DNA of 64,000 bases from Candidatus Latescibacterota bacterium (GTDB lineage: Bacteria; Latescibacterota; UBA2968): NCBI GenBank assembly GCA_965116885.1, contig OZ220741.1, forward strand, positions 3,158,932 to 3,222,931, given 5' to 3'. Below are positions 4,348 to 61,055 of the stretch, in pieces (the first letter of the stretch is position 1; every line of letters starts with the position of its first letter). The position numbers and the translations under genes were made by a program. Below the pieces are notes generated by a model. The model worked only from the letters and a program-made list of their open reading frames with translations. It did no database searches and had not been told where the DNA came from.

Positions 4348-4395
4348 ACGTCAATCCTCCTCATTTAGATCTATGTCATAGCAATTCAAAAGCTA

Positions 4396-8792: not shown

Positions 8793-8826
8793 CTCTTATC
8801 TCTCTTGGCTCATAGCGGTCGATGGG

Positions 8827-11604: not shown

Positions 11605-11615
11605 AAGATCTCCTT

Positions 11616-12932: not shown

Positions 12933-12954
12933 GTCAGGTGTCCTGTTAAATATT

Positions 12955-13362: not shown

Positions 13363-13375
13363 GTGTTTTTCCACC

Positions 13376-14116: not shown

Positions 14117-14119
14117 AAC

Positions 14120-14725: not shown

Positions 14726-14734
14726 AGTGGTTTA

Positions 14735-15229: not shown

Positions 15230-15257
15230 AAAACCTCCTTTAAAGTTTGATTCCCGA

Positions 15258-16322: not shown

Positions 16323-16468
16323 GTCCTATATCCAGATATTACTAAACAAAAAGTAATGTCTCTTGCCAGAGGGCACAACCGAAACCTTGCAGCAAAGGCC
16401 GTCTTTTTATATCTTTACCCAAATACGCGTGAAATATCCCCAGGGGGATTGCTCCCCCACAACAGGAG

Positions 16469-17527: not shown

Positions 17528-17556
17528 TCGTTTAAAAAATAAAGTTATGCGATACC

Positions 17557-17585
17557 AAAGGCCCGATACATCTCGGGCCTTTTGC
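17557..17585. terminator. Intrinsic terminator hairpin aggcccga-tacatc-tcgggcct followed by a T-run, between convergent nadA and the amidohydrolase gene
   Basis: An 8-bp GC stem and a TTTTG tail sit between the two stop codons. Confidence 0.4.
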
Positions 17586-17633
17586 GTTTCGATATTGCGT
17601 ATCAGACCTGTGTGTTTTTGGTCAACGCCAATC

Positions 17634-18965: not shown

Positions 18966-18983
18966 GTTTTCCTCCGTTTACTT

Positions 18984-20027
18984 CTACCTGATTTTTAGTA
19001 ATAATATCAGCAAGAGAGGCGTTACAATGGCTTGTAAGAGCGTAAATCTGACCAGTACCTGTGTATTGGACCAGCCCCATTTTTGACGGACGTGATCGTG
19101 CAGGGGATAACGCACCTGTTTGAAAATGCCGATTTTTAAAAAGCGCAACAAAGCGACTTTCAGAAGGCCTGTTGCGCCATTGACCAGCACCACCCCGGCA
19201 ACTACGATAATCAAAAACGGATTGCCACACGCCAGGACCAGCATACCGAGTAATAAGCCCAGAGGACGAGATCCGGCATCGCCCATTAACACGGCACTTG
19301 GATTGGCATTGTGCCACAAGTAGCCCACCAAACACCCCGTCATGACAAAAGCCATCACGGCCCAATTCGCGCCCTCTTTGTAGTGTGGCACAAGCAGGTA
19401 TTGGGCGATATCCCGATGTCCTACAATGCCGTATAGTGCACCACCTAAAAAAATAAAGGCCAGCATGCACAAACTGCCCGATAGGCCATCCACGCCGTCT
19501 GTGCAATTTGTAGCGTTAATCGTCATCCACAACAAGCACGTAGCAATAGGGATATAAATCCAGGGTGGGACAATAACCGGTGTTTTAATGAGCGGCAGCC
19601 ACACTTCAACTGATGCCATCTGGCACACTACCATCGCACCCAAAATGGAGATGATCAGATCGAATAACCCCATGCGGTATTCACTCCACTCATAGCGGTC
19701 ATCGAGAAATCCCACCAGCATCGCCAAAAACAGGCACCCCAATGCGGCCAGATAGCGCGTTCCAAGCGGCACAAATAAAAATCCGACGACAATAAAAATA
19801 GAAATAAAAATAATACCTGCCCCTACGGGTTTGCCCTTATTTTGGGCGGCGCCAACAGCATGCGCTCGCCCCTGATCGCGCGGTAATCGGTGCCACAATT
19901 TGGGCAAAATTCTCCAGGTGAACACGCAGGCGAGCGCGGTACCTGCACCAACTAAAAATAAATGAGAAGTAAAGAGGCGAAATGGCCCATAGACGTTCAA
20001 AAGTTGCTCCCCCAGCCAGTAGAGCAC
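18984..20027 (-). CDS. mraY: Phospho-N-acetylmuramoyl-pentapeptide transferase MraY
   Basis: The N-terminus MLYWLGEQLLNVYGPFRLFT parallels E. coli MraY. The DD motif VGFLDDRYEW, the NATNCTDGVDGLSGSL loop and the PLHDHVRQKWGW His-motif are present across 10 TM segments. Confidence 0.8.
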   Translation of the reverse strand: MLYWLGEQLLNVYGPFRLFTSHLFLVGAGTALACVFTWRILPKLWHRLPRDQGRAHAVGAAQNKGKPVGAGIIFISIFIVVGFLFVPLGTRYLAALGCLFLAMLVGFLDDRYEWSEYRMGLFDLIISILGAMVVCQMASVEVWLPLIKTPVIVPPWIYIPIATCLLWMTINATNCTDGVDGLSGSLCMLAFIFLGGALYGIVGHRDIAQYLLVPHYKEGANWAVMAFVMTGCLVGYLWHNANPSAVLMGDAGSRPLGLLLGMLVLACGNPFLIIVVAGVVLVNGATGLLKVALLRFLKIGIFKQVRYPLHDHVRQKWGWSNTQVLVRFTLLQAIVTPLLLILLLKIR

Positions 20028-20144
20028 AGCACAATCTCCCGTGTGATATGATTTGAAAAACGAAACAAATCAAGACCAATGTAAGGTCTCTATGATTAAA
20101 GGGCAAGTCTGAACTCATAGCTGGTTCCATTTGAAAGAAAAACC

Positions 20145-20400
20145 TTGACGCGAAAACAGAGACTTTCTATTTTGTGTACTATGAACGCATTGATCAAAAA
20201 CCCGGTTATTTTTTCAAATCCAAACACAATTTTGGCCGGGGATGCGTTTGTCCATACTGCCCAGCATCATACCCATCATGCTACGTCTGCGACTTTTTGC
20301 ATGATATGCTCGGCGGTGGATATGTCATAACAGTTTGTCCAATGAAATGAACAAGCCCGCTGTCGAGAGACAGTGGGCTTTTTTTTTTAGGAGAATGACA
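20145..20400 (+). promoter_or_regulatory. Putative hisI leader/attenuator: promoter, His-rich leader ORF, intrinsic terminator abutting the hisI RBS
   Basis: The promoter reads TTGACG (20145..20150), a 17-bp spacer and TATTTT. The leader ORF to the TAA at 20328 contains VHTAQHHTHHATS, with 5 His codons (all CAT) in 9 positions at 20253..20279. A 10-bp hairpin gcccgctgtc-gaga-gacagtgggc (20355..20378) is followed by 10 Ts (20379..20388), then AGGAG (20389..20393) and the hisI ATG at 20401. Confidence 0.35.
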
Positions 20401-20829
20401 ATGTCTATTAATCGTCAACTCGAAGAAGGCACAGAACTTCATCTCGATTTTGAAAAGCTACGCAAGGTTGCACAAACCGACCATTCCGTCATTCCCGTTG
20501 CTGTACAGGATGTGGATAGCAAAGCCGTTCTCTTGATCGGCTATGTCAACGAACGGGCACTTGATTACGCGCTTGAACACCGCGTGGCAACATTCTGGAG
20601 TACTTCGCGCAATGAACTCTGGATCAAAGGGGCTACGTCTGGCGATATGCTCGAACTGGTCGATGTGCGTATCAACTGCGAGCAAAATTCACTGCTTTAT
20701 CTCGTGCGCCTCAAAGGCGATGGATCGTGTCATACGAAAGAAAATGGTCGAGCGCGTTACGGCTGTTATTACCGCAGTATCGATAATGGAAAATTGACAT
20801 TTGTAAATCCCAAAACCATACCGGAGTAA
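20401..20829 (+). CDS. hisI: Phosphoribosyl-AMP cyclohydrolase HisI
   Basis: The conserved core IPVAVQD…LLIGYVNERAL…FWSTSRNELWIKGATSGD…CEQNSLLYLV…CHT is present. An SD AGGAG lies 7 nt upstream. Confidence 0.85.
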   Translation: MSINRQLEEGTELHLDFEKLRKVAQTDHSVIPVAVQDVDSKAVLLIGYVNERALDYALEHRVATFWSTSRNELWIKGATSGDMLELVDVRINCEQNSLLYLVRLKGDGSCHTKENGRARYGCYYRSIDNGKLTFVNPKTIPE

Positions 20830-26550: not shown

Positions 26551-27900
26551 CTAAGCGCATTCAGCGCACATTTTGTCGCATCGTCGTCTCAGTCGGTTGA
26601 GTTGATCTGAGGATCTGGGATCTCTCGCGAGATTAAAGGATTCGTGGGGGTCCTTGCGGAGATCGTAGAGTTCCTCATAGACGGGCTGTTGCTCGTAGTA
26701 GCGAATGTATTTCCAGCGTTTTGTGCGTATGCCTTCGCTCTTGGGGATGTCGGCACGATGGAACCGGTGTTCGCAGAAGAACGCTTTTCGCCAGTCAACT
26801 TTCTCGTCGCGCAACAATGGAACAAGAGATTTGCCCTGCATTTTGTCCGAGGCGTCCAGATTCGCCAGTTCGAGGATGGTTGGTGCGATATCGATGTTTA
26901 GTGCTAATTCTTCGCGGATGAGACTCCGGTTGTCCTCGGCATCTCTTGGATCGAAGACAATAAGGGGAATGCGGATCGACTGTTCGTTCAACTGCCAGCA
27001 GTCGCTGAGTCCGCGATCTCCATAGTACATCCCATGGTCAGATGCGAAGATTACGACTGTGTTGTCGGATAATGACAGTTGATCCATCGCCTCGAGAATC
27101 CTGCCGATGTTCCGATCCACACCGCTCACCATTCGGTACAGCCCTCGCATGTTTCTCTGATAGTCCTCAGATGTCGAATAGCGCTTTTGCCATCGTGCGC
27201 GACTTTCCGTTTCGCGAAGAAATTTTGGCAACTGTCGGAAAAAGTCGGGATGGGCGTTGAATGGCTCTGGTATTTGCGTCTCTGTGTAGAGGGGATTTTC
27301 TGTAGCGGGCCAAATGTAGTAGCGCGGATCATTGTCCTGCGCGTGCGGCGCGTTGAAACTGATGGAGAGACAAAATGGCTGGCCGGGATAATCTGATTGA
27401 TGTGTGCGTAGGAAGTCGATCGTTTTGTCCCCTGTAATGTCGGTCAGGTGGCGCACACTGCCATCGGGCTGTCTGATTTCATACCCTTCTTCAGTCCAGT
27501 GTTCGTAGTTTTCGAATACGTCAAACATCTTTTCCACTGTATCCTCGTCCTGCAGAGAAGGGGCGATTCCGTTGGTGGCAATGCCGAATTTGCCGATTAG
27601 CCCTGTGCGATAACCCGCCATTTTAAGAGTAGCAGGGTAGGAGATGTCGGTGTATGCGCTTTGAAGGGGTGGTGTGAGGAAGGTGAATCGGTGGCGTTTT
27701 TCATAGGTGCCCGTGAGATAGCTGGCCCGGCTTGCGGCGCAGATTGGACTTGTGCAGAATGCGTTTTCGAACCGCACACCGCTTGCGGCAAGCCGATCTA
27801 TGTTTGGGGTTTTGATGATTGGATTGCCAGCGCAGCCGAGCAGGTCATTGCGCTGGTTGTCGGTCAGGAGGAAGAGGATGTTCGGAGGAGGTGCCCTCAC
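26551..27900 (-). CDS. Sulfatase (arylsulfatase-like) with non-canonical C-A-A-S-R active-site motif
   Basis: ILFLLTDNQRND is followed by FCTSPICAASRASYLTG. There is no signal peptide. The start overlaps the stop of the upstream Gfo/Idh/MocA gene. Confidence 0.85.
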   Translation of the reverse strand: MRAPPPNILFLLTDNQRNDLLGCAGNPIIKTPNIDRLAASGVRFENAFCTSPICAASRASYLTGTYEKRHRFTFLTPPLQSAYTDISYPATLKMAGYRTGLIGKFGIATNGIAPSLQDEDTVEKMFDVFENYEHWTEEGYEIRQPDGSVRHLTDITGDKTIDFLRTHQSDYPGQPFCLSISFNAPHAQDNDPRYYIWPATENPLYTETQIPEPFNAHPDFFRQLPKFLRETESRARWQKRYSTSEDYQRNMRGLYRMVSGVDRNIGRILEAMDQLSLSDNTVVIFASDHGMYYGDRGLSDCWQLNEQSIRIPLIVFDPRDAEDNRSLIREELALNIDIAPTILELANLDASDKMQGKSLVPLLRDEKVDWRKAFFCEHRFHRADIPKSEGIRTKRWKYIRYYEQQPVYEELYDLRKDPHESFNLARDPRSSDQLNRLRRRCDKMCAECA

Positions 27901-40807: not shown

Positions 40808-41911
40808 TTAGTCCAGGTTGTAGAGTTCCCGGGCATTCTCTCCCATAATTTGTTTTTTAACGTCTTGATCCGATACATGGCTCAGTGCCTGGTCGGGCGA
40901 ATCAAAGTCCCAGTGCGGATAATCGGTCGCAAACATCAGTTTATTGTCCATGTCCATGTGCGCCAGCATCTGCTCGAAATACGCCGGGTCTGAAGGTTCT
41001 TCTACGGGCTGTGTGGTCAGATAGAAATGATCCCGGATATATTCTGAGGGCAGGCGCTTTAAATAGGGCACTTCCATCTTGAGTTTTCGGTACCAGTTGT
41101 CCATTCGCCACATCAAAGGTGCGACCCATCCGAAACCGCCTTCGATTAGAACGATTTTTAAGCCGGGAAATTGCTCAAAAACGCCTTCGTACACATAGCT
41201 CGTTACCTGTGCCTGAAACGCCATGGGCATCCCCCCGTGGTCCTGAATATAATGCGCCGCCTTGCCCGCGCCCGTAATCGGGCCAATACCCGTGCCACCA
41301 AAGTGAATGCCGATGGGGAGGTCGTAGTCAACGGCTGCCTCGTAAATTTTCCAGTATTTACGGCGGCCCAGTGGCTCCATTGTGCGGGCCATGAACATCA
41401 GTTGTACAAATCCCGGGTGATCGCCCAGGCGTTCAATTTCAGCGACGGCGAGATCGGCGTCTTCATACGCGACAGTTAGGGATGCGCGCAATCGCTCATC
41501 TTTTTCCAGCCATTCTGCTATTTGCCATTCATTAACCGCTTGTGCAATCGCCGCTCCGTATTCCAGGTTTTGCTGTCCTCCAGCAGGCGATAGCGGGTTC
41601 AATATGCCGTAGTCCATTTCCCAGGTGTCCAGCAATTGTTCCTGCATAAAGCCCAGATGCGACCCAGGGGGTCCTTCGGGGGGGAATGCATCGTTTCGCG
41701 CTGCAAAGGGCACAGCTCTCGGACAATTGGACCCGGATCGTCTGCGCCCTGCAATGCTCAAATGATAATCCTTCCAGGCACTGGGCATATAATCTACCCA
41801 GACCTCAGTGGCGGGGGATTGGTATCCATCTACATTGTGAATATCGCAATCGATTACCGATAGCTTTTCTCTTTTTTTGATCTCTGGCTTTTCTAAAAGC
41901 GTCATTGCCAT
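40808..41911 (-). CDS. Amidohydrolase-2 family (COG2159/ACMSD-like) metal-dependent hydrolase, possible sugar lactonase
   Basis: The metal-binding HxH is represented by VIDCDIHN. The FATDYPHWDF C-terminal motif is typical of Amidohydro_2. Confidence 0.7.
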   Translation of the reverse strand: MAMTLLEKPEIKKREKLSVIDCDIHNVDGYQSPATEVWVDYMPSAWKDYHLSIAGRRRSGSNCPRAVPFAARNDAFPPEGPPGSHLGFMQEQLLDTWEMDYGILNPLSPAGGQQNLEYGAAIAQAVNEWQIAEWLEKDERLRASLTVAYEDADLAVAEIERLGDHPGFVQLMFMARTMEPLGRRKYWKIYEAAVDYDLPIGIHFGGTGIGPITGAGKAAHYIQDHGGMPMAFQAQVTSYVYEGVFEQFPGLKIVLIEGGFGWVAPLMWRMDNWYRKLKMEVPYLKRLPSEYIRDHFYLTTQPVEEPSDPAYFEQMLAHMDMDNKLMFATDYPHWDFDSPDQALSHVSDQDVKKQIMGENARELYNLD

Positions 41912-41923
41912 AGCGATATCTCC

Positions 41924-42991
41924 TCACAATTTGTAAAACGCGCGTGCATTTTCTCTCAAAATTTTTTCCAGTAGCGAATCGGACAGCCCTTTTGGAATGG
42001 CGTCATCCGGCCCGTCAAAATGCCAGTGCGGATAATCGGTCGAAAACATCAGTATTTCATCCGAGTCCAGTTGTCCAATCATTTGCAACAGGTGTTCGGA
42101 GTTTATGGGCGCGTCCATTGGTTGTAGTGTCATCCGAATGTGTTCTCGCACGTAGTCCGATGGCGGTCGCACGACCCAGGGGGTGTCTCGGCGCAGACCT
42201 TTCCACTCTTTGTCCATGCGCCACATCCAGGCAGGCATCCAGACAAATCCACTTTCGATTAACACCACCCGCAATTCGGGAAATCGCGCAAACGCACCTT
42301 CTGAGATCAGGCTCAGGACTTGTGCCTGAAAAATCTGCGCCATATCGGCACATTCTTCAATATAGGTCGAAGGCCAGCCCACGGGTGTGGGGGGAAGCGA
42401 TGAAGCGCCGCCAAAATGAATGCCAATTGCCAGGTCGTGCTTTACTGCTGCCGCGTACATCGGATTGTATTCGCTTTTTCCATATAGAGAATAGGAGCGA
42501 ACAGGGAGTATTACCTGGACGAAGCCGGGATGATCGCCAAAGCGTTCAATTTCTCGCGCGGCGAGGATGGGATTCTGGCTGGGTACGACCAATGAAGCGC
42601 GGAGACGCGCGTCTTTCTCCAGCCAGTGATCGATCTGCCACTGGTTGACCGCTGTTGCAAGCGATGCTGCGAGGTCTTCGTTGTGTACGCTTTGCACCCA
42701 GTAGCCACAGGTCAAAATCCCCACTTCTACATTCCATGGGTCGAGTACCTGTTTTTGCGTTAGTTCCAGATTGGAACCCGGGGGACCATTTGCGGGTCGA
42801 GTACCTTTCCGCGCAGATGTGGGTGCGCCACCCGGATAATCATTCGCGCCGGGACCCCGAAAATGGGATTCGCGAATATACGCGACCCAGTGGTCTTCCA
42901 GATATGGGACAAGGGTTTCCAGAGAGGCAAACGCATTGTGAATGTCGCAATCGATAACGGGGCGGCCGAGCCCTGTAAAATCAGCGGTCAT
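41924..42991 (-). CDS. Amidohydrolase-2 family metal-dependent hydrolase (tandem paralogue)
   Basis: The same VIDCDIHN and FSTDYPHWHF motifs are present. It is a tandem paralogue of the previous gene. Confidence 0.7.
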   Translation of the reverse strand: MTADFTGLGRPVIDCDIHNAFASLETLVPYLEDHWVAYIRESHFRGPGANDYPGGAPTSARKGTRPANGPPGSNLELTQKQVLDPWNVEVGILTCGYWVQSVHNEDLAASLATAVNQWQIDHWLEKDARLRASLVVPSQNPILAAREIERFGDHPGFVQVILPVRSYSLYGKSEYNPMYAAAVKHDLAIGIHFGGASSLPPTPVGWPSTYIEECADMAQIFQAQVLSLISEGAFARFPELRVVLIESGFVWMPAWMWRMDKEWKGLRRDTPWVVRPPSDYVREHIRMTLQPMDAPINSEHLLQMIGQLDSDEILMFSTDYPHWHFDGPDDAIPKGLSDSLLEKILRENARAFYKL

Positions 42992-44683: not shown

Positions 44684-44795
44684 AATAAGTTGCTATTGGG
44701 AAAAATGCAAGGCTAAGGAACAATTCCGACTTGTGCGATACGGAATCCCACTTTATCATGGTCTCTACTATTGCCAATCTTATGCAAAGGAGAAA

Positions 44796-46331
44796 ATAAT
44801 GACTTCTACTGTTCGCAAATCCATTGTCGCCCTGTTGTTATTGCTTCCATATCCCATTCTCGCAGATGTTTCTATGCCCGCGATTTTTTCAGATAATATG
44901 GTGTTGCAGCAGCAAACTGCAATATCCGTGTGGGGAAATGCCAGTGCGAATGAGGAGATTGCTATTGAGTTAGATACCCAGCGCGTGACGATCACAGCAG
45001 ATGCGGGGGGTACGTGGCAGATTCACCTGAATCCTATGGAAGCGGGAGGCCCATATCAGCTCACCGTGCGCGGCGAGAATGTCGTCACTTTTAACAATGT
45101 GATGGTGGGGGAGGTCTGGGTCTGCTCGGGGCAATCCAATATGGCCTGGTTTGTCAGGCGTTCTCAAAATGCGGAGGAGGAGATCAAAGCGGCAGATTAT
45201 CCCAATATCAGGCTTTTTACGGTCAAACGCAGTGCCGCGCAAAGGCCCACGCAAGATGTTGAGGGCACCTGGAGCGTTTGCGATACGAGTAGTGTCGGCA
45301 ATTTTTCTGCGGTGGCCTATTATTTTGGACGCCGCCTGCACAAATCTTTGAATGTGCCCATTGGTCTTATCAATACATCCTGGGGTGGTACACCGGCTGA
45401 GGCCTGGACGTCATTGCCCGCGCTTCAAGTTATACCGGAGTATGCGCCGCTGGGCAAGCGCTGGGCTGAATACATCGCCGCTTATCCAGAAGCACGGGAG
45501 GAATACCAGGCCAAGCTCGCCGTATGGCAGGCAAATACCGATAGCTTGCGCGCTTTGGGGCAACGCCGTCCGCGAAGACCGTGGCGAAATCCGAATAGTC
45601 CCCATCGCCCGTCTGTGCTCTACAATGGGATGATCGCACCTCTCGTTCCATATCCCATTCGCGGTGCGATCTGGTATCAGGGGGAATCAAATGCTGGCCG
45701 GGCATATCAATATCGCGCGTTGTTTCCAGCGATGATTCAGGACTGGCGTTCGAGTTGGGGGCAGGGCGCATTTCCATTTTTCTTTGTACAGCTTGCCAAT
45801 TTTAGACCAGTAAAGGAAGATCCCGAGGAGAGTGCCTGGGCTGAATTGCGCGAGGCGCAATTGATGACGCTTTCATTGCCGAATACAGGTATGGCTGTGG
45901 CGATTGATATTGGTGAGGCAGACGATATTCACCCGAAAAATAAACAGGATGTTGGCTTGCGTCTGGCTCTGGGTGCAGAAGCTATGGTCTATGGTATGGA
46001 TCAACCGCATTCTGGTCCTATTTATCGGTCTATGGCGGTTGAAGAAGACAAAATTCGCCTGAAATTTGATCACGCGTATGATGGCTTAAAAGCAAAGGGC
46101 GACATGCTCAAGGGTTTTGCGATTGCCGGTCAAGATCGCAAATTCGTTTGGGCAGAGGCAAAGATTGATGGCAACGATGTGCTGGTCTGGAGCAAAGATA
46201 TTCAGCAACCCGTTGCAGTCAGATACGCATGGGCAGATAATCCAATTTGCAATTTGTACAATGGTGCAGATTTGCCGGCATCGCCATTTCGCACGGATGA
46301 CTGGCGCGGTATCACCGCTGACCGGCAGTAG
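44796..46331 (+). CDS. Sialate O-acetylesterase-like (SASA/SGNH) carbohydrate esterase
   Basis: The signal peptide MTSTVRKSIVALLLLLPYPILA and the catalytic GQSNM motif (VWVCSGQSNMAW) are present. The start was chosen at the ATG with an AAGGAG SD. Confidence 0.7.
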   Translation: MMTSTVRKSIVALLLLLPYPILADVSMPAIFSDNMVLQQQTAISVWGNASANEEIAIELDTQRVTITADAGGTWQIHLNPMEAGGPYQLTVRGENVVTFNNVMVGEVWVCSGQSNMAWFVRRSQNAEEEIKAADYPNIRLFTVKRSAAQRPTQDVEGTWSVCDTSSVGNFSAVAYYFGRRLHKSLNVPIGLINTSWGGTPAEAWTSLPALQVIPEYAPLGKRWAEYIAAYPEAREEYQAKLAVWQANTDSLRALGQRRPRRPWRNPNSPHRPSVLYNGMIAPLVPYPIRGAIWYQGESNAGRAYQYRALFPAMIQDWRSSWGQGAFPFFFVQLANFRPVKEDPEESAWAELREAQLMTLSLPNTGMAVAIDIGEADDIHPKNKQDVGLRLALGAEAMVYGMDQPHSGPIYRSMAVEEDKIRLKFDHAYDGLKAKGDMLKGFAIAGQDRKFVWAEAKIDGNDVLVWSKDIQQPVAVRYAWADNPICNLYNGADLPASPFRTDDWRGITADRQ

Positions 46332-52865: not shown

Positions 52866-53093
52866 GTGAAAAATCAAGAAATTACAATTTGCGTAACGCC
52901 AGAGGCTGCTCGCGTTTATCAGTCTGCATCGGTACAAGATCGGCAAAAATTAAATGTTTTGTTAAGTCTGCAATTGAGTGGTTTGAGAAAAAAGTCACGT
53001 CCAATTGAAGATATTATGCGCGAAGCCAGCGAAGAAGCGCGAAAAAATGGTTTGACGCCTGAAATATTGAAAGAACTGCTTAATGAATCATAA
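52866..53093 (+). CDS. Putative VapB-like antitoxin (type II TA)
   Basis: This 75-aa protein overlaps the start of a PIN-domain gene by 11 nt. Confidence 0.5.
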   Translation: MKNQEITICVTPEAARVYQSASVQDRQKLNVLLSLQLSGLRKKSRPIEDIMREASEEARKNGLTPEILKELLNES

Positions 53094-53505
53094 ATCGCGC
53101 TATGTATTCGATACGAATGTCATTGTTAGTGCTCTTCTTTTTGCCCAATCAACATCTGGTCGTTCATTAAAAATTGCGCTGAATCAAGGTGTGTTACTTC
53201 TTTCAGAGGCAGTCGCCGAAGAATTGGAAGAGGTGCTCCGAAGGGATCGTTTTGATCGCTATGTGAAAAGAGAAACACGCAAAGAATTTCTTCAATCGCT
53301 CATTCAAAGCGCAACATTTATTGAAATAATAGCGCACATAGAGATTTGTCGAGACCCCAAAGACGACCAGTATTTGGAACTGGCAGTCAATGGTAAAGCG
53401 GACTGTATTGTCAGCGGGGATGCAGATCTCATTGTTCTAAGTCCTTTTCGAGGAATTGACATATTGCCACCTCATGAATTTCTAATGACGCTCGGTTCCA
53501 AGTAG
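53083..53505 (+). CDS. vapC: PIN-domain toxin (VapC-like, TIGR00305-type)
   Basis: The four PIN acidic motifs are present: YVFDTNV, …EAVAEEL…, DPKDDQYLELA and SGDADL. Confidence 0.7.
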   Translation: MNHKSRYVFDTNVIVSALLFAQSTSGRSLKIALNQGVLLLSEAVAEELEEVLRRDRFDRYVKRETRKEFLQSLIQSATFIEIIAHIEICRDPKDDQYLELAVNGKADCIVSGDADLIVLSPFRGIDILPPHEFLMTLGSK

Positions 53506-53584: not shown

Positions 53585-53905
53585 ATGAAGCTAAAATATG
53601 CGGTGGTCTATGAACGCACGCCGAACAACTACTCAGCCTATTCGCCTGATTTGCCGGGCTGCATAAGCACTGGAGAAACCTGGGAGGAGATTCAGGAAAA
53701 TATTCGGGAGGCGGTCACCTTTCACATCGAGAGTCTGATGGAATACGGCGACCCGGTTCCCCAACCGCAGATGTCTATTGAGGAATCAATGGCTTTCCAT
53801 TGCAAAGCCCTCAAAGAGTACAAGGATCCGATTCCTCAACTGGAGACCACAGTAGGCATAGCCGAGGTTGAAGTCAAACCATCACAGGCGGCAAGAGCAA
53901 GTTAA
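53585..53905 (+). CDS. HicB-like (UPF0150) antitoxin-family protein, orphan (no adjacent HicA)
   Basis: The N-terminal YSAYSPDLPGCISTGETWEEIQENIREAVTFHIESL matches the HicB RNase-H-like fold. An internal duplication MEYGDPVPQP / KEYKDPIPQL is present and no DNA-binding domain is evident. Confidence 0.5.
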   Translation: MKLKYAVVYERTPNNYSAYSPDLPGCISTGETWEEIQENIREAVTFHIESLMEYGDPVPQPQMSIEESMAFHCKALKEYKDPIPQLETTVGIAEVEVKPSQAARAS

Positions 53906-54002: not shown

Positions 54003-54785
54003 CTATACATTTTCCAGCACATCTCTCATCGCTTTTCCCTCTTCGCGGAACCATTGCATTAAGATGCTCACGTCGGTTCCCACGCAAAAGTGTTTCACGC
54101 CCATGTCCAGATATCGCTTCGCGCCTTTGGCATCTCCGAGTTCTGCCCGGGGCGCGATGCCCATTTTAAGCGATGTTTCGATCACGTATTTTTCGGCTTC
54201 TTGTACTTTTTCCCTATCATAGCCCGTGCTCAGAGAATAATCCCCTGGCCCGAACTGTATCATATCCAGGCCCGGCACGGAAAGCAGTGCTTCCAGGTTT
54301 TCGACGGCTTCCTTCTTTTCGATCATGATCGCAATAACTGAATCGCGACACGACTGAATAAATTCAGCCCCTCCTGTGTCCATACCAAACCGCACGTACC
54401 GGCGCATATTCACCCCGTGATGTCCACCATCCTCTGGCGTGTCGGGTCGCACGGTTTCCACACACGCCTTCACATCTTCTACTGTGCGCACGTCGGCGAA
54501 TAAAATATTCTGAATGCCCGCACCTATGGCGCGGTTTGCAATATGTCCACGTGGGTCTTCCTCGACCTTGATCATTGCCGACATATCGTCGAATAGATCG
54601 ATAGCCCGACCGATATTGTCCATGGTGTGTAAATCATAAGGGGCGTATTCGGATACGTATTCGATATAATCAAACTGTCCCGAATATCCCACCATTTCAA
54701 ATACCGATGGCCACGGGCTGTGTACGTGGGTTCCCAGGCTGGGTTGATCGGCATTGAGCAGTTCTCTCAGCTTATTTCGGCGCAT
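54003..54785 (-). CDS. HpcH/HpaI-family aldolase (4-hydroxy-2-oxo-acid aldolase-like)
   Basis: 260 aa with class II aldolase TIM-barrel motifs (…SPWPSVFEMVGYSGQFDYIEY…, …MIQFGPGDYS…). Confidence 0.7.
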   Translation of the reverse strand: MRRNKLRELLNADQPSLGTHVHSPWPSVFEMVGYSGQFDYIEYVSEYAPYDLHTMDNIGRAIDLFDDMSAMIKVEEDPRGHIANRAIGAGIQNILFADVRTVEDVKACVETVRPDTPEDGGHHGVNMRRYVRFGMDTGGAEFIQSCRDSVIAIMIEKKEAVENLEALLSVPGLDMIQFGPGDYSLSTGYDREKVQEAEKYVIETSLKMGIAPRAELGDAKGAKRYLDMGVKHFCVGTDVSILMQWFREEGKAMRDVLENV

Positions 54786-54995
54786 GGTTCCTCCTTGAAG
54801 GTGTTATGATAGGGCGTCTTATTTCCTATGAATACGCAAAAACAGCGAGAAAATCCAGTGAACTTCTCTGCGCGCATCCAGACCTCGACAATTTTGGGTT
54901 GCCTCTTGAACAAGATGAAGATATACTATTAGTAAGATTTATATAAATTTATTTTTGTGAAAAATATTCGAGATAAATCATTGAAAAACAGCATT

Positions 54996-55024
54996 TTGTT
55001 ATTTCGATTGCTGGGGTATAGAAT
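54996..55024 (+). promoter_or_regulatory. Candidate promoter for the DUF1800 operon: TTGTTA, 17-bp spacer, TAGAAT
   Basis: The -35-like hexamer at 54996..55001 is separated by a 17-bp spacer from the -10-like hexamer at 55019..55024. This lies within a 275-bp AT-rich divergent intergenic region, 37 bp upstream of the ATG at 55061, which has a GGGGGA RBS. Confidence 0.3.
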
Positions 55025-55060
55025 CACAATTAACGAGGTATTTCAGCAAAGGGGGAAACA

Positions 55061-56449
55061 ATGTCGAATACCGATATTGCGTTAATGGCCCACCTGATGC
55101 GTCGCGCCGGGTTTGGGGCCACGAGAACAGAACTGGAGGACTATGTCGAAAAGGGCTACGAAAACGTCGTGGAGGACCTGATCGAGCCGGAGCGCTGCGA
55201 TCCGGTTGATGAGGATATTTTGCACCGTTATTTTGGCAGCTTTGAGGCGGGTTACGTCGAGAAATGGATGTATCGAATGATCCGTAGCAAGCGCCCGCTC
55301 GAAGAAAAAATGGCTCTTTTCTGGCATCACGTATTCGCCACCGGGGTGGGGAAAAATCAGCACCTTCTCGCCTCTGCTCGCCAGATCGATACTTTTCGTC
55401 GTGTGGGTCTTTCAAATATGCGAGAAATTTTGATCGAACTGTCCAAAGATCCGGCCATGATCTTCTGGCTGGACAATAACGAAAATCGCAAGGGTGAGCC
55501 TAATGAGAATTACGGCAGGGAGCTGTTGGAACTCTTCTCAATGGGCGTTGGCAATTACACAGAAGACGATATTAAGAATTGTGCCCGCGCCTTTACGGGA
55601 TGGACATTCGCACAGCCGCCGCCCCTGTATCCGCAAGGCTTTTACGATGCGAAATTCGTTTTCATTGAGGAAGACCACGATGATGAGGAAAAGACGTTCT
55701 TGGGGCATACGGGCAATTTCAATGGCGACGATATCATCGACATTATAGTCGAACAGCCTGCCTGCGCCAAATTCATATCCAGGCATCTCTATAACTTTTT
55801 TGTCACGGACGAGCCGCAGGTTCCATCCTGGCATGTGACTCCGCCGCAGGATCCCGAAGCGATTGAAATTCTGTCAAATGCTTTTATGGAGTCGAAAGGC
55901 AATATGCGCCACATCCTGAGAACGCTCTTTAACTCTGACTTCTTCAAAGACGCGCGAGGGAAAAAGGTGAAAAGTCCTACCGAACTCGTTACGGGCATTC
56001 TAAAACTGATCGGCACCTATCAGCGTCCCGATCCGGGTATGGGAAGATATTCGGGTGCTACCACGTTAATGGGGCAGAAATTGCTGGATCCTCCGACTGT
56101 GGAAGGCTGGCACACCGGCAGGGAATGGATTGATGGCGGCACGCTGACCGAGCGCGTGAATTTCGCCGTTCGCGAGGTAAGCGATGCGTCCAGGCCGGGC
56201 ATACGTGGAATCATCGATCGGCTCAAAGCCGAGGGGCGGGCACTCGCTCCTGATGAGTTCGTGGAAAAATGTCTGGATCTCGCAGGTCCTATGACCGTGA
56301 GTGATACGACCCGCGAATCTTTGAGCAAATTTGCGGAAGCAGGTGGCGATCTCGATCTATCTGCGGACAACGGATCTGGGGAGAGCACAGATCGCGTGAT
56401 ACAGATGCTGCAACTCATTGTCGCTTCGAGAGAATATCAATTTGCGTAG
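55061..56449 (+). CDS. DUF1800 family protein
   Basis: The N-terminal HLMRRAGFGAT…ELE motif and WLDNNENRKG / NENYGRELLELFSMG regions are characteristic of DUF1800. No signal peptide is present. Confidence 0.7.
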   Translation: MSNTDIALMAHLMRRAGFGATRTELEDYVEKGYENVVEDLIEPERCDPVDEDILHRYFGSFEAGYVEKWMYRMIRSKRPLEEKMALFWHHVFATGVGKNQHLLASARQIDTFRRVGLSNMREILIELSKDPAMIFWLDNNENRKGEPNENYGRELLELFSMGVGNYTEDDIKNCARAFTGWTFAQPPPLYPQGFYDAKFVFIEEDHDDEEKTFLGHTGNFNGDDIIDIIVEQPACAKFISRHLYNFFVTDEPQVPSWHVTPPQDPEAIEILSNAFMESKGNMRHILRTLFNSDFFKDARGKKVKSPTELVTGILKLIGTYQRPDPGMGRYSGATTLMGQKLLDPPTVEGWHTGREWIDGGTLTERVNFAVREVSDASRPGIRGIIDRLKAEGRALAPDEFVEKCLDLAGPMTVSDTTRESLSKFAEAGGDLDLSADNGSGESTDRVIQMLQLIVASREYQFA

Positions 56450-56470
56450 CGTTCTGAAAGGAGGAATAAA

Positions 56471-57607
56471 ATGGCTTATAGAGATCGGATCCTCGTCATT
56501 GTTGAGTTGAAGGGCGGCAATGACTTCATGAATACGATTATCCCTTATACCAACGGCATATACCACGATTGCCGGCCCATTGTGGGGCTTCGGCAGGATG
56601 AGGTTTTGCCGATGAACGACACGCTGGCCTGGCATCCCAATACGGTGCCTCTGAAGGAGATGTTTGAGCAGGGTGATGTGGCGATTGTGCAGGGTATCGG
56701 GTATCCCGATTCGAGCCGGTCGCATTTCAGGGCTATGGATGTCTGGCATACCTGTGAACCCATAGATATCGGCACTGAAGGCTGGCTGGGCAGAGTGGTT
56801 CGGGATCTGGATCCGAAGGGGGAGAATGTCTTGACGGGCATTAACTTTGGAAAAGGACTTTCCAGAGCGCTGGCTGTTTCTGGCGTTCCCGTGACATCTG
56901 TTGACGATCTCGACAATTACGGATTGATGACCAGCATCAAAGAAGACCCAAAGCGAATGCAGGCTATTGAGATATTCAAGACTATGTACGAACCCGCGAT
57001 TGGTACAGGTGTGGTGATGGATTATCTTTCGCAGACGGGCCTGGATGTCATCAGAGGTTCCGATGAGCTGAAGAAGGCTCCGGCGATGTATCAGTCCGAT
57101 ATGGAGTACGGAAGCAATTCGATTGCGAAGGCACTGAGAGATGTCGCGCGCGTTCACCTTGCCGGTCTCGGCACAAGGATCTTTTACACGCAGCACGGGG
57201 GCTATGACCACCATGCAAATGAAATGCCGTCACATCCCAAGTTGCTGACGGAGTTGTCGGAAGCAATCCGCGATTTTTTCCAGGATTTGCGAAACCACAA
57301 TGCCTCACAAGAGATTGTCATGCTCGTTTTTTCTGAGTTTGGGCGGCGTATGAGGGATAATGCCAGTGGCACTGACCACGGTACAGGTGGCGGTGCATTT
57401 ATCATCGGTGATGGTGTGAATGGCGGGTTATACGCAGAATATCCCTCTCTTGACCCATCTCGATGGGCCAATGGCGAAGACCTTGAGCATACAATTGACT
57501 TCCGCGGCATATACGCAACGCTCCTGGAGCAATGGATGGGAATGGATGCCACTCCGATTGTGGATGGGACATTTGAACAGATCCAGCCTTTCAAAGAGGC
57601 CGTGTGA
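56471..57607 (+). CDS. DUF1501 family protein (alkaline-phosphatase/sulfatase-like fold)
   Basis: The hallmark motifs RILVIVELKGGNDFMNT, SRSHF, DVWHT and FSEFGRR…GTDHG are present. It begins directly with the mature domain, with no Tat/Sec signal, 21 bp after the DUF1800 stop. Confidence 0.75.
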   Translation: MAYRDRILVIVELKGGNDFMNTIIPYTNGIYHDCRPIVGLRQDEVLPMNDTLAWHPNTVPLKEMFEQGDVAIVQGIGYPDSSRSHFRAMDVWHTCEPIDIGTEGWLGRVVRDLDPKGENVLTGINFGKGLSRALAVSGVPVTSVDDLDNYGLMTSIKEDPKRMQAIEIFKTMYEPAIGTGVVMDYLSQTGLDVIRGSDELKKAPAMYQSDMEYGSNSIAKALRDVARVHLAGLGTRIFYTQHGGYDHHANEMPSHPKLLTELSEAIRDFFQDLRNHNASQEIVMLVFSEFGRRMRDNASGTDHGTGGGAFIIGDGVNGGLYAEYPSLDPSRWANGEDLEHTIDFRGIYATLLEQWMGMDATPIVDGTFEQIQPFKEAV

Positions 57608-57627
57608 TAATGAAAGGGAGGTGAATC

Positions 57628-58623
57628 ATGGGCAGACCTTATGGCCTGTTGCGGGCAGGGTTTCCATTTTACAAGACTTTGGGTATGAGGCGGCTGACGA
57701 ATTTTCCGATCGATATTGCTCTGGGCGAGGAAGGCTGTCTCTACATATTGTGTCGGAACAGAGATGCATCGACGATCAGGAAGTACCATATCGATGACAA
57801 AGACCTGGGTACCGTTGGCCGTGGGCTTACGTGGGCGGTTTCAATTATTGCCGATAGCGAGGAGAATCTCTATGTCTCCGACGAGGCCGTGCATTGTATT
57901 TTGTCTTTCGACAAAGATGGCAAAGAGTTGGGGAAATGGGGTGAGTACGGCGATGGCGATGGACAACTGAACGGTCCGGCGGGTATCGCCTTCGATGCAG
58001 AAGAGAATATCTATGTTGCTGACAGCCTGAACCACAGAGTCCAGAAGTTTACCAAAGATGGTGAATTTATCTCAAAGTGGGGGAAGTTTGGCGATGGGGA
58101 GGGCGAGTTTAACATGCCCTGGGGGCTTACAGTGGATGAACTGGGCGATGTTTATGTCGCAGATTGGCGGAATGACAGAATTCAGAAGTTCACTGGTGAT
58201 GGAGAGTTTATCTTCGCGTTCGGGAAGTCGGGTAGCGGAAATGGGGATCTAAATAGGCCGACCGGTGTGGCCGTAGATGAGCATGGCGATATTTATGTTT
58301 CGGACTCGGGAAATGACCGGGTACAATTGTTCAATTCCGAGTCGAGGTACGTGCAGAAATTCCTGGGGGATGCAACCCTGTCAACGGTCGCAATTGAATA
58401 TATGATGACAAATGCCGGTCCAAATCGCCTGAGGGATATGGCAGACCTCGAGCCGCAAAAGTACTTTCGACGTCCGGGAGGGGTGGCTGTCAATGGAGAT
58501 GGACTGATGTTTGTAGCGGACAATGGCTCCTATCGGGTGCAGGTCTATCAGAAGCAGGCTGTCCCGCTTACGGAAGAGCAATTTTCCGCGCCGAGACGTT
58601 CGCCTACACTTCACCAGGAATAG
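57628..58623 (+). CDS. NHL-repeat beta-propeller protein
   Basis: At least five NHL repeats are present (…GDGDGQLNGPAGIAFDAEENIYVADSLNHRVQKF…, …GEFNMPWGLTVDELGDVYVADWRNDRIQKF…). No signal peptide is present. Confidence 0.75.
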   Translation: MGRPYGLLRAGFPFYKTLGMRRLTNFPIDIALGEEGCLYILCRNRDASTIRKYHIDDKDLGTVGRGLTWAVSIIADSEENLYVSDEAVHCILSFDKDGKELGKWGEYGDGDGQLNGPAGIAFDAEENIYVADSLNHRVQKFTKDGEFISKWGKFGDGEGEFNMPWGLTVDELGDVYVADWRNDRIQKFTGDGEFIFAFGKSGSGNGDLNRPTGVAVDEHGDIYVSDSGNDRVQLFNSESRYVQKFLGDATLSTVAIEYMMTNAGPNRLRDMADLEPQKYFRRPGGVAVNGDGLMFVADNGSYRVQVYQKQAVPLTEEQFSAPRRSPTLHQE

Positions 58624-58692
58624 GTTGAACGCGTCGAATACAGAGGCCCTCATTTTTCGCTGGGGGCTATTTTTTATGACTTCTTACCCTGT

Positions 58693-60669
58693 GTGCAAAC
58701 AATGAGCAATCCTTTACAAGCACACCTGTTATCTTCGAGAGAGCGAGAGCCATCGGTGCGCCCGGGCGCTATTGGCCTGGGGGTAGTGCTCACATTTTGC
58801 ATCAACGGTTTCGACCCTATTTCCCGCTACTTGATCCACTCTTCCTCGTTCACACACAGCCAAATGCCCTTTGCCTTGCTGGTGGGGATTCTGCTCCTGG
58901 GCTATCTCTACAATCCCCTCGTTCGAAGGCGATTTCCCCACCTCGCTTTGACGCGGCGGGATATGGCTGCCGTGCTCGCTATTGGGTTTCTCGGCACAAC
59001 AGTGCCCACCCTCGCCCAGCGATTTGTAGCCGTGATCTCGGCTCCGGATTACTACGCTTCTCCGGAAAATGAATGGCCCACCTACACGCTGCCCAACCTG
59101 CAGCGCTGGTTGTTCCCCAGCAATGCCGGAGATGGCGTTGGAATGTTCTATCGCGGGCTGGTTCCCGGTGTGCCTTTGCCCTGGGAGATATGGGTTGGTC
59201 CGATCTTCTGGTGGTTCAGTCTGCTCATTGCGATCATGCTGGCCTGTTTTTGTCTCTCAGTCATTTTGAGAAAACAGTGGTCGGAAAGCGAGCGTCTGGC
59301 ATTTCCCTTTGTCGAGCTTTCGCTGATGCTGGTAGAGAATCCCGGTCCCAGACGAAACCTGCCTCAATTTTTCGGCCTGCCCCTTTTCTGGATCGGGTTT
59401 GCGATTCCGGCAATTATGCTTTTTTGGAATACAGCAGGCCACTTCTTTCCGGGCCTTCCCACATTCGCGTTTCTCAATATTAGAACACTGCTCCCCATCG
59501 GACGGGGATTTATGCCTTTCTTTCTCCAGTTCGATTTCTACGTCATTTGTTTCGCGTATTTCACCACCCTGGAAATTCTCTTGTCGATGTGGCTTTTCCA
59601 CATTTTGGGCATGTTGCAGGCAGGCATTTCCAACCGTATCGGGTTTGGTCCAAGAGGCTATGGTTCGGGGGTGATCTCTCAGAACAATTACGGCCTGATG
59701 GTTTTTGTGCTGTGGAGCCTCTGGATCGCACGCGGTCACATCCGCGATGTCTGGCGCAAAGCAATTGGAAAAGGCCGCGAGGTAGATGATTCGAGTGAAC
59801 TGCTCTCCTATCGCACAGCAACCTTCGGTTTCGTCCTTGCCAGCCTTTTCATCTTTTTTTGGCTCTGCAAAACCCGGATGAATCCGGGGGTGGCCGTGGC
59901 ATTTATGTTTTTTAGCCTGATTCTCTATTTGGGGATGGCCAAGATCGTGGCGCTCAGCGGATTGGTGTCTTTACGGGGTTCGGGACCTACCGGACCCGTT
60001 AAGGGATTGATCGGTATCTGGAATATGGATGATACGACGATTGCGGCTCTGAACCAGATGGGCACGCTTTACGGCAATGCAAAGGGATTTGCGATGCCAG
60101 GTGCGGTGAATGCCGCCAGGGCTGGCGACCACACCGATCCTCAAAGACGCCGATTGGGAGGGGCAATTCTCATTGGCGGAATTCTATCAATTTTCGCCTT
60201 TGTGATTACTACCCTTATTCTGGGTTATTACGGGCCGGGAGCTGAGAATTTTGGAGATTACAGTTATACGCGAGGCAGCCGGGCCTTTTTTAATTATACT
60301 GTTTCGGATATCAAAGGGCGTCCAGATGCTGAAAGGCAGTGGTGGGACCTGGGCTTCGGAACCTTCGGAGCAGCGATGACTCTGCTGCTGATTTTTCTGA
60401 ACCAGCGGTTTTCCTGGTGGCCTCTGCACCCGGTGGGATTCACCGTTTCCCTCCAGTATCCCACCCGCGCGTCCTTTTTTTCGGTATTTATCGCCTGGCT
60501 GATGAAAATAATTGTTCTCAAAGTCGGCGGTATTGAGCTTTTTAACCGCTCTCGTGTTTTTATTTTTGGCGTCCTCATGGGCTATACGCTGGGTGTTCTG
60601 GTTTCTTTTGTTCTGGATATTTTCTTTTTTTTGGGGCAAGGCCACCGCATGCACACACCGCCGCTGTAA
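58693..60669 (+). CDS. Large polytopic integral membrane protein of unknown function (about 14 TM)
   Basis: 658 aa with many hydrophobic segments rich in aromatics (WWFSLLIAIML…, FWIGFAIPAIMLFW…). It lies 69 bp downstream of the NHL gene and is followed by a terminator. Confidence 0.6.
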   Translation: MQTMSNPLQAHLLSSREREPSVRPGAIGLGVVLTFCINGFDPISRYLIHSSSFTHSQMPFALLVGILLLGYLYNPLVRRRFPHLALTRRDMAAVLAIGFLGTTVPTLAQRFVAVISAPDYYASPENEWPTYTLPNLQRWLFPSNAGDGVGMFYRGLVPGVPLPWEIWVGPIFWWFSLLIAIMLACFCLSVILRKQWSESERLAFPFVELSLMLVENPGPRRNLPQFFGLPLFWIGFAIPAIMLFWNTAGHFFPGLPTFAFLNIRTLLPIGRGFMPFFLQFDFYVICFAYFTTLEILLSMWLFHILGMLQAGISNRIGFGPRGYGSGVISQNNYGLMVFVLWSLWIARGHIRDVWRKAIGKGREVDDSSELLSYRTATFGFVLASLFIFFWLCKTRMNPGVAVAFMFFSLILYLGMAKIVALSGLVSLRGSGPTGPVKGLIGIWNMDDTTIAALNQMGTLYGNAKGFAMPGAVNAARAGDHTDPQRRRLGGAILIGGILSIFAFVITTLILGYYGPGAENFGDYSYTRGSRAFFNYTVSDIKGRPDAERQWWDLGFGTFGAAMTLLLIFLNQRFSWWPLHPVGFTVSLQYPTRASFFSVFIAWLMKIIVLKVGGIELFNRSRVFIFGVLMGYTLGVLVSFVLDIFFFLGQGHRMHTPPL

Positions 60670-60682
60670 TAAGTAGAGCCAT

Positions 60683-60726
60683 AAAAAAAGCGGAGAAATC
60701 CAGTAGATTTCTCCGCTCTCTTTTTA
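60683..60726. terminator. Bidirectional intrinsic terminator: gcggagaaat-ccagtag-atttctccgc flanked by aaaaaaa and tctcttttt
   Basis: A perfect 10-bp stem with A and T tracts lies between the convergent membrane-protein gene and cox subunit IV. Confidence 0.6.
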
Positions 60727-60738
60727 TCTGTGATATTG

Positions 60739-61055
60739 TTACTGCAAATAGTGGCTCGCCGGCATGCCCAACCAGCCGCGACTGACGTAATCTGCCATTG
60801 CAAAGGCAAATAGGATCAGCAAGAACAGGATGCCTGCACCTGCGAGCAACCAGGTCAATCGGCTGGCGTATTTGACGTGCATAAAAAACAGAATCACAAT
60901 CGTGGCTTTTGTGCAGGCGATACCCAGTGCTACCACGTCATTAAACATGCCCAATTCTTGATAAGCCACCCAAACCGTTAGCGCGGTTAAAAACATCAAG
61001 GAGGCAAATACCGCCAGATAAATGCGTACAGTCGGGCCGTGGTGATCATCAGCCA
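60739..61055 (-). CDS. Cytochrome c oxidase subunit IV (caa3-type, small 3-TM subunit)
   Basis: This 105-aa hydrophobic protein begins MADDHHGPTVRIYLAVFASLMFLTAL. It sits immediately after subunit III in the cox operon, and the ORF-track start 61131 is an upstream extension. Confidence 0.5.

Follow-up and report, generated by a model that had tools for sequence, protein, structure and literature searches.

A signal-less DUF1800/DUF1501/NHL gene cassette of Latescibacterota and other bacterial phyla, and the predicted transporter gene beside it

DUF1501 is a very large bacterial protein family without a characterised member, and DUF1800 is its frequent partner. DUF1501 is heavily expanded in Planctomycetes and Verrucomicrobia (PMC3542564). 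The literature we searched contained no paper characterising either family, in agreement with a preliminary description of the DNA considered here, which was aware of no experimentally characterised DUF1800/DUF1501 system. The closest described counterparts are canonical pairs of a DUF1800 protein and a DUF1501 protein with a twin-arginine translocation (Tat) signal, which occur in Proteobacteria, Bacteroidota, Actinomycetota, and Planctomycetota and are themselves uncharacterised. We analysed a related locus in a 64,000-nucleotide stretch (the window) of a Candidatus Latescibacterota bacterium genome (contig OZ220741.1), which shares with the canonical pairs the two Pfam families, their adjacency, and their order. 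Four genes follow one another on its forward strand, encoding a DUF1800 protein, a DUF1501 protein, an NHL-repeat beta-propeller, and a polytopic DUF6785/DUF6784 membrane protein. Four features of the locus are shown here: the conservation of a cassette formed by the first three genes, the missing export signals of its products, a terminator inside the gene row, and the transporter fold found by modelling the membrane protein. The formation of a complex, the chemistry, and the connection of transporter and enzyme are inferred from them.

The positions of the four open reading frames (ORFs; Table 1), the gaps of 21, 20, and 69 nt between them, and the start of the DUF1501 gene after the DUF1800 stop are as described previously, and each ORF is the longest in its frame. 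Pfam searches bore out the DUF1800, DUF1501, and NHL assignments. The DUF1800 protein matches PF08811 over profile positions 1-418 of 419 (E = 5e-101; 339.3 bits against a cut-off of 26.1). The DUF1501 protein passes the PF07394 threshold (E = 1.7e-22; 80.6 bits against a cut-off of 27) with a partial match, of residues 155-330 to profile positions 178-342 of 390; its N-terminal GGxDxxN and RSHF motifs align with those of a canonical family member. The NHL protein matches PF01436 (E = 7e-40), with four repeats individually above threshold. The membrane protein had been thought to match no recognisable family; Pfam finds in it an N-terminal DUF6785 domain (PF20581; E = 2e-91; 307.3 bits, cut-off 25) and a C-terminal DUF6784 domain (PF20580; E = 7e-21; 74.7 bits, cut-off 26.4). 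NCBIfam supplied no name for any of the four proteins, returning only sub-threshold ScyF-like NHL matches; PADLOC matched no defence family apart from a weak NHL-repeat match; and an Rfam scan of 54500-61000 found no family, hence no riboswitch. Strong Shine-Dalgarno sequences precede each soluble gene (AGGGGG for DUF1800, AGGAGG for DUF1501, and GGGAGG for NHL), and none was found before the start of the membrane gene. The latter probably starts at ATG 58702, giving 655 amino acids (aa), rather than at GTG 58693 (658 aa); a 95%-identical relative of its product, P0001, has 655 aa. The DUF1501 protein of the window is 95-99% identical to gene products in 11 Candidatus Latescibacterota metagenome-assembled genomes (MAGs), eight of which are complete chromosomes.

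The N-termini of the soluble proteins were compared over 60-70 homologous genes. DUF1501 proteins always begin M-x(3-6)-K-D-P-V-L-V-V-V-[QE]-L-x-G-G-N-D, and DUF1800 proteins begin at the conserved AHLMRRAGFG edge of their domain. In-frame stops in relatives lie 0-25 codons before DUF1501 (5-25 in many loci), 1-9 codons before NHL (one codon in most loci), and, often, 0-14 codons before DUF1800. Because the ORFs are maximal and these stops lie so close upstream, a signal peptide is impossible. Hydrophobic stretches are missing from all three soluble proteins, the maximum 19-residue Kyte-Doolittle mean staying below 1.0. The earlier statement that DUF1800 and DUF1501 carry no Tat or Sec signal is thus upheld. 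We also considered a hidden upstream start encoding a signal peptide; the in-frame stops rule it out.

A positive control and a database search place this state in the wider family. The DUF1501 protein of a Lacipirellulaceae locus (L077; 37% identical) starts MYTTRRKFLATLAGGSAVISLGA, a textbook Tat signal. A HMMER search of 1.84 billion protein cluster representatives returned 12,669 DUF1501 relatives at E ≤ 0.001; among the best 150 of these, 118 have a twin-arginine (RR) motif in the first 50 residues, with GGxDxxN at about residue 45-65, and 16 have a short, RR-less N-terminus, comprising the clade of the window and a few others. The DUF1501 protein of the window, whose maximal ORF leaves no room for one, lacks the family-typical twin-arginine signal. 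The signal-less state of DUF1501 is real and marks a discrete clade, within which identity is at least 50%, compared with 33-41% to the Tat-bearing relatives.

In canonical pairs the Tat signal is on DUF1501, with none on DUF1800; this holds for all four pairs inspected (Lacipirellulaceae, Chondrinema litorale, Miltoncostaea oceani, and Azospirillum, the last three being annotated pairs on replicons). A signal-less DUF1800 protein, noted previously at this locus, is therefore normal for its family, and only the loss of the Tat signal from DUF1501 is unusual. Since DUF1501 alone carries the signal in these pairs, the simplest reading is that the two proteins fold together and are exported as a complex on the DUF1501 signal. 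If export is joint in this way, loss of the DUF1501 signal would suffice to keep both proteins in the cytoplasm.

The first three genes are conserved together. A DUF1501 scan across one genome per GTDB species yielded 69 loci, 68 of them with usable matches, and the complete co-directional DUF1800/DUF1501/NHL cassette was present in 63 of the 68, in the order 1800-1501-NHL in 59 loci and 1501-1800-NHL in four. The five exceptions comprise two cuts at contig ends, two orphan DUF1501 genes, and one Tat-type pair without an NHL gene. Hosts of the cassette are Latescibacterota, Poribacteria, Entotheonella/Tectimicrobiota, Dehalococcoidia/SAR202, and Nitrospinota, to which matches in the large database add Caldilineaceae and TARA ocean sequences. 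NHL is present in all 63 complete cassettes and adjoins none of the four canonical Tat-type pairs. Among the best 120 matches, DUF1501 is at least 69% and DUF1800 at least 63% identical, and the identities of the three proteins to those of the window correlate across loci (r = 0.98-0.99). Cassette DNA is 75-78% identical between Latescibacterota and Poribacteria over 3.5 kb; given this identity and a homologous terminator hairpin, the cassette seems to have been passed between phyla as one piece. The genes flanking it vary by lineage and include, on our reading of their sequences, those for an aminotransferase, a transaldolase, a pyruvate kinase, and acyl-CoA dehydrogenases. An HpcH/HpaI aldolase gene lies upstream in all 11 Latescibacterota loci that reach that far and is absent there in other phyla.

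Several variants of the cassette were also observed. Four loci (L065, L066, L068, and L069, at ~1-1740) carry an NHL gene followed by a gene for a 51%-identical signal-less DUF1501 protein, without DUF1800, ~8 kb upstream of a full cassette. Orphan genes for signal-less DUF1501 proteins occur in L056 (10001-11098; 57% identity) and L073 (10001-11107; 65%), and neither has DUF1800 or NHL in the surrounding 10 kb; that of L073 adjoins an ABC permease gene. In the Dehalococcoidia locus L063 (importer genes and cassette at 4318-14280), the cassette ends in three tandem NHL paralogs instead of one. In L010 (639-7706), a 95% relative, genes for an IS605-type TnpB and a methyltransferase replace the usual upstream flank; DUF1800 is called there as 390 aa only and may be truncated or have a different start.

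Between the NHL and membrane genes lies an intrinsic-terminator-like hairpin (58645-58668, or 58645-58676 as listed in Table 1) that the preliminary description had missed. It is kept in 12 of 12 Latescibacterota loci, with compensatory substitutions, and most Poribacteria have behind NHL a homologous hairpin, (A/G)GCCCTC(A/G)GTC...GACTG(A/G)GGGC, with its T-run. Three Poribacteria loci (L035, L040, and L051) have the hairpin with no DUF6785 gene behind it. It is therefore the cassette's own terminator. The unit is a three-gene cassette plus one separate gene, since the terminator splits genes 3 and 4 and gene 4 is absent or non-orthologous outside Latescibacterota. The locus had been presented as a tight four-gene operon. 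That description fits genes 1-3, which are co-operonic here and co-directional in the 63 complete loci, but not the row of four; likewise, the order of the three genes is widely conserved, but that of all four only in Latescibacterota relatives at least 87% identical.

At the other boundaries, the data agree in part with what was described before. A promoter had been proposed at 54996-55024. This site matches only nine of 12 consensus positions and lies in a poorly conserved stretch of the alignment with 11 related loci, where it is partly deleted in L021 and L022; moreover, the region holds eight promoter-like sites against 7.2 expected from shuffled sequence. The site at 54899-54927 is better conserved and is a candidate cassette promoter by its match to the consensus; the 5' untranslated region would then be ~130 nt. 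The strong bidirectional terminator at the end of the gene row was correctly identified, with its 12-bp stem between an A-run and a T-run, and is common to the membrane gene and the convergent cytochrome oxidase genes. The close relatives L010 and L011 carry an Antibiotic_NAT gene (aminoglycoside N-acetyltransferase family) between DUF6785 and the COX4 gene (11981-12745), where the window has the bidirectional terminator alone (60670-60740).

The membrane protein was modelled from an alignment of 89 DUF6785 sequences, giving a predicted local distance difference test score (pLDDT) of 94 and a predicted template modelling score (pTM) of 0.93. A Foldseek search with the model matched 7wst/7wsr (E = 4e-8; probability 1.00; template modelling (TM) scores 0.61/0.66), the next match having a TM score of 0.12, and the model shows the YS core plus scaffold fold of HvYS1. 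According to this model, the membrane protein has an OPT/Yellow-Stripe transporter fold. The Pfam OPT profile matched none of 10 diverse DUF6785 proteins, even at E up to 10, and single-sequence searches of the PDB with DUF1800, DUF1501, and DUF6785 gave no match. Such a fold favours the import of a soluble solute over the presentation of a lipid-linked substrate to a complex at the membrane face. DUF6785 genes elsewhere adjoin genes for cytoplasmic PhyH dioxygenases and Amidohydro_2 proteins, with a PhyH neighbour in five unrelated loci, a pattern expected of a catabolic importer. The literature we searched contained no paper mentioning DUF6785. For DUF6785/DUF6784, which occur commonly as multi-paralog families in Latescibacterota, Poribacteria, Gemmatimonadota, and uncultured lineages related to them, the predicted fold suggests solute import, a function that can be tested; this would be the first functional assignment for these families.

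Tandem arrays of DUF6785/DUF6784 genes were observed in L001, with seven copies in 16 kb (5243-20797; 58-61% identity), and in L084 (3652-13010); genes for PhyH dioxygenases, GHL10, and Amidohydro_2 are interspersed among the copies of these arrays.

Residue conservation gives some indication of what the cassette proteins may do. In DUF1501, D18 (of GGNDxxN), R83-S84-H85-F86, D90, D246-x-H248, E289-F-G-R-R293, N297, D302-H303-G304, and D343-x-R345 are invariant, the Tat-type relative included. This pattern would fit an alkaline-phosphatase-superfamily metal site with a serine nucleophile, and in Pfam the family belongs to the alkaline-phosphatase clan. Many His, Asp, and Glu residues of DUF1800 are invariant, and no structural relative of it has been solved. 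Its AlphaFold2 model (pLDDT 81 overall) is least confident at the most conserved motifs, residues 139-160 and 347-359, which is consistent with a role of these motifs at an interface. DUF1800 is probably an obligate partner of DUF1501, and we suggest that the two form a complex. The invariant residues of the NHL protein are those of the repeat motif D-x-x-N-x-R-x-Q, without any invariant His; since only this scaffold motif is conserved, NHL would be a binding or scaffold subunit. Against known structures the NHL protein matches the Drosophila Thin NHL domain (E = 5e-84) and TRIM71 (E = 1e-79), E-values that owe part of their strength to the alignment of the same repeats in several registers. 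The likeness is one of repeat consensus and is not evidence for a specific eukaryotic origin.

We favour the following reading of the locus, to which we give a probability of about 0.5 as a whole. The cassette would derive from the widespread, normally exported DUF1800/DUF1501 pair; in this clade DUF1501 would have lost its Tat signal, leaving the pair in the cytoplasm, and a six-bladed NHL propeller would have been gained as a third subunit, probably for binding or scaffolding. In the resulting cytoplasmic DUF1800-DUF1501 heteromer with its NHL partner, DUF1501 would be a metal-dependent enzyme that hydrolyses or transfers a phospho-, sulfo-, or similar ester group. The DUF6785/DUF6784 protein, predicted to be a proton-coupled importer of OPT/Yellow-Stripe fold, is probably expressed through partial read-through of the cassette terminator, and may bring in a small organic solute (peptide-like, chelate-like, or esterified) for the cassette to process. 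Substrate delivery by the membrane protein had been proposed before; that part is plausible, but a lipid-linked substrate and a membrane-face complex are disfavoured by the OPT fold.

Gene neighbourhoods make a link between transporter and cassette plausible, at roughly even odds. All 12 Latescibacterota loci have a DUF6785 gene directly behind the cassette (95-96% identity), as does one related MAG (87%). In most Poribacteria loci, a convergent pair of DUF6785 paralogs (27% identical to the protein of the window) lies 40 nt to 8 kb downstream, within 10 kb, and in five loci a paralog is directly adjacent to the cassette. OPT-fold genes thus neighbour the cassette in two phyla, although proteins of such low identity cannot have been inherited along with it. 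In nine loci of a Dehalococcoidia subclade, an Opp/Dpp-type ABC importer (SBP_bac_5, BPD_transp_1, and OppC_N) is encoded within ~5 kb of the cassette; in L063, genes for SBP_bac_5 and two Opp-type permeases lie directly upstream on the same strand. Opp/Dpp-type importers carry peptides and metal-chelate-type solutes. OPT-family importers also carry peptides and metal-chelate-type solutes (PMC9691689). In the window, the DUF6785 gene has little room for a promoter of its own in addition to lacking a Shine-Dalgarno sequence, which suggests expression by read-through.

Other observations weigh against the favoured reading, some of them bearing on the chemistry and some on the link. Alignment of DUF1501 with the three sulfatases of the window by hhalign gave a probability of 0.2, a search of PDB sequences with the DUF1501 profile found nothing, and a relaxed Pfam scan of 33 DUF1501 members returned noise except for one weak Phosphodiest match (E = 0.19); membership of the alkaline-phosphatase superfamily was thus not confirmed in this analysis. 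The role given to NHL is a guess, its conserved residues including none that look catalytic. As for the link, the evidence is gene adjacency, and between cassette and transporter gene stands the conserved terminator. In most lineages the cassette adjoins no transporter gene, and no DUF6785 gene lies within 10 kb of it in Entotheonella, SAR202, most Dehalococcoidia, or Nitrospinota. The neighbouring DUF6785 proteins of Latescibacterota and Poribacteria are 27% identical, compared with ~80% for the cassette, so the transporter was not transferred with it. The gene for an 86%-identical DUF6785 protein (P0002) is solitary, flanked by a dehydrogenase gene and an esterase/sulfatase pair. Finally, DUF6785 genes are multi-copy in some genomes (seven in a row in L001), which makes chance adjacency likelier.

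Many of these same observations would be explained if the cassette and DUF6785 were unrelated neighbours, the cassette acting on an endogenous cytoplasmic substrate (in a housekeeping, stress, or cofactor-related role) and the transporter serving other catabolic enzymes. We consider this a real possibility, if well short of an even chance. Besides the terminator that is also kept where no DUF6785 gene follows, the lineages without a transporter beside the cassette, and the solitary 86% homologue, it accounts for the variable flanks of the cassette, often occupied by housekeeping genes, for the very high conservation of the cassette sequences, and for the usual partners of DUF6785 being PhyH or Amidohydro_2 rather than DUF1501. 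It does less well with the two importer types, OPT-fold and Opp/Dpp ABC, that adjoin the cassette in three separate lineages, or with the apparent dependence of the window's DUF6785 gene on read-through.

An improbable alternative is that the cassette, rather than being a soluble catabolic enzyme, belongs to an intracellular vesicle or compartment, e.g., one that handles metals or minerals in bacteria of complex cell plan, and that the OPT/YSL-like protein imports metal chelates. The 15 most abundant proteins in the vesicle fraction of Entotheonella (PMC12981691), a lineage that has the cassette (L041-L044), include two DUF1800 proteins, and Fe(III)-phytosiderophore is what the transporter's single solved structural relative moves (PMC9691689); the invariant His, Asp, and Glu residues of DUF1800 would also suit this role. 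However, the Entotheonella vesicle proteins W4LJC4 and W4LDN1 could not be matched to the DUF1800 of the cassette. Moreover, the cassette is also present in SAR202, which is free-living (an ALOHA MAG), and among TARA ocean sequences, and its proteins have no membrane anchor or targeting signal.

The preliminary description pictured a complex on the cytoplasmic side of the membrane, with the large GT-C-like or ligase-like membrane protein presenting a lipid-linked substrate to DUF1501. The adjacency of the four genes on one strand, in the window and in close relatives, agrees with this model, but we regard it as very improbable: the four-gene unit is not conserved, a terminator stands between genes 3 and 4, and the fold search matched only OPT/YSL structures, with those of GT-C enzymes and O-antigen ligases at background. 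Identity as a GT-C protein or an O-antigen ligase, suggested before, was accordingly rejected.

Tat hitchhiking is an established export route, and the DUF1800 of canonical pairs appears to depend on it; that the cassette proteins are still exported by this means or from an unrecognised start codon, as ordinary periplasmic members, is nevertheless highly unlikely, since in dozens of loci an in-frame stop immediately before the gene rules out a longer N-terminus, the surroundings of the cassette contain no conserved partner with a Tat signal, and in sequence the clade is set sharply apart from the Tat-bearing relatives.

The favoured reading, of a cytoplasmic DUF1800/DUF1501/NHL cassette with ester chemistry and a separate importer that possibly feeds it a solute, can be extended into a broader one that we consider rather unlikely. 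A Tat-exported pair would have been redeployed to the cytoplasm with an NHL partner, would have spread horizontally as a promoter-to-terminator cassette, and would have recruited importers, either OPT-fold DUF6785 or Opp/Dpp ABC, thus forming an unrecognised pathway that processes an imported compound of esterified, peptide-like, or chelate-like nature. Its hosts would be abundant marine and sponge-associated bacteria (SAR202/Dehalococcoidia, Poribacteria, Latescibacterota, Entotheonella, and Nitrospinota), and DUF6785/DUF6784 would represent a new bacterial branch of the OPT/Yellow-Stripe superfamily. As a conserved, soluble, signal-less version with a fixed third partner, the cassette offers a practical way into the function of the whole DUF1501 family, and its proteins should be simpler to express and assay than Tat-exported forms.

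The surroundings of the locus in the window were also inspected. Just upstream of the HpcH/HpaI aldolase gene lie genes for a PIN_3-domain protein (53083-53505, forward strand) and a HicB-like antitoxin-domain protein (53585-53905, forward strand), in a toxin-antitoxin-like arrangement. Catabolic genes of the window encode three sulfatase-like proteins (by motif reading), two adjacent Amidohydro_2 proteins, a SASA-type carbohydrate esterase, and several Gfo/Idh/MocA oxidoreductases, and are found at 10285-13001, 26551-27900, and 40808-42991 (all reverse strand) and at 44733-46331 (forward strand); together they give an organosulfate and glycan profile. Such a profile is usual for sponge-associated uncultured bacteria.

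Table 1. Genes and candidate regulatory elements of the locus, in window coordinates.
Feature	Position	Strand	Remarks
HpcH/HpaI-family aldolase gene, divergent	54003..54785	-	PF03328, E = 3e-13
Promoter-like TTGCCT-17-TATACT	54899..54927	+	consensus scan; near-conserved in alignment with 11 Latescibacterota loci
Promoter-like TTGTTA-17-TAGAAT, from the preliminary description	54996..55024	+	9/12 consensus match; weak candidate
DUF1800 protein, 462 aa	55061..56449	+	PF08811; without signal peptide; all-alpha
DUF1501 protein, 378 aa	56471..57607	+	PF07394; without family-typical Tat signal; putative catalytic subunit
NHL-repeat beta-propeller, 331 aa	57628..58623	+	PF01436; cytoplasmic; third cassette member
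Intrinsic-terminator-like hairpin GGCCCTCA...TGGGGGCT and T-run	58645..58676	+	GC-rich; between NHL and membrane genes
DUF6785+DUF6784 polytopic membrane protein, 658 aa	58693..60669	+	predicted OPT/Yellow-Stripe-fold secondary transporter
Strong bidirectional terminator	60689..60717	.	12-bp stem, 6 GC pairs; A-run upstream, T-run downstream

Each component of the locus can be compared with better-known systems. The DUF6785 protein shares only 11-13% identity with the OPT/Yellow Stripe-like family, represented by barley HvYS1 (PDB 7WSR/7WST), and has the same fold in its model; it differs in belonging to a bacterial family of many paralogs, whose genes are usually neighbours of those for PhyH or Amidohydro_2. 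Members of the alkaline-phosphatase superfamily (sulfatases, phosphodiesterases, and phosphonate hydrolases) resemble DUF1501 in what appear to be an Asp following the first strand, a Ser/His at the N-terminal end of a helix, and the motifs D-x-H and D-H-G. In contrast to them, DUF1501 lacks the C/S-x-P-x-R formylglycine motif and yields no significant profile or PDB sequence match. The NHL protein has the canonical repeats of NHL beta-propellers (TRIM-NHL proteins, the PknD sensor domain, and PAL lyase) and matches TRIM71 and Thin strongly, whereas it forms a bacterial cytoplasmic protein by itself, its gene being tied into one operon with those of DUF1800 and DUF1501. A PAL-type Zn site needs His residues, and the cassette NHL, unlike PAL lyase, has no invariant His for one.

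For the DUF1800/DUF1501 core, the PSCyt/PSD1(DUF1553)-DUF1501 modules of Planctomycetes and Verrucomicrobia (PMC3542564) likewise place DUF1501 beside a large helical partner. Weak matches of DUF1800 members to PSD1/DUF1553 (22 of 55; best E = 3.7e-4), and also to PSD2, hint that these partners may be related, the matches lying below Pfam thresholds. The PSD1-DUF1501 modules differ in being exported and in possessing cytochrome c and carbohydrate-binding domains, of which the cassette has none. The canonical DUF1800/Tat-DUF1501 pairs are closer, with the DUF1501 invariant residues common to both and DUF1800 free of a signal in both. The cassette stands apart from them in its DUF1501, which has no twin-arginine signal and is 33-41% identical to the canonical forms; in its NHL protein, always present here and missing at the four canonical pairs; and in its unusual conservation across phyla.

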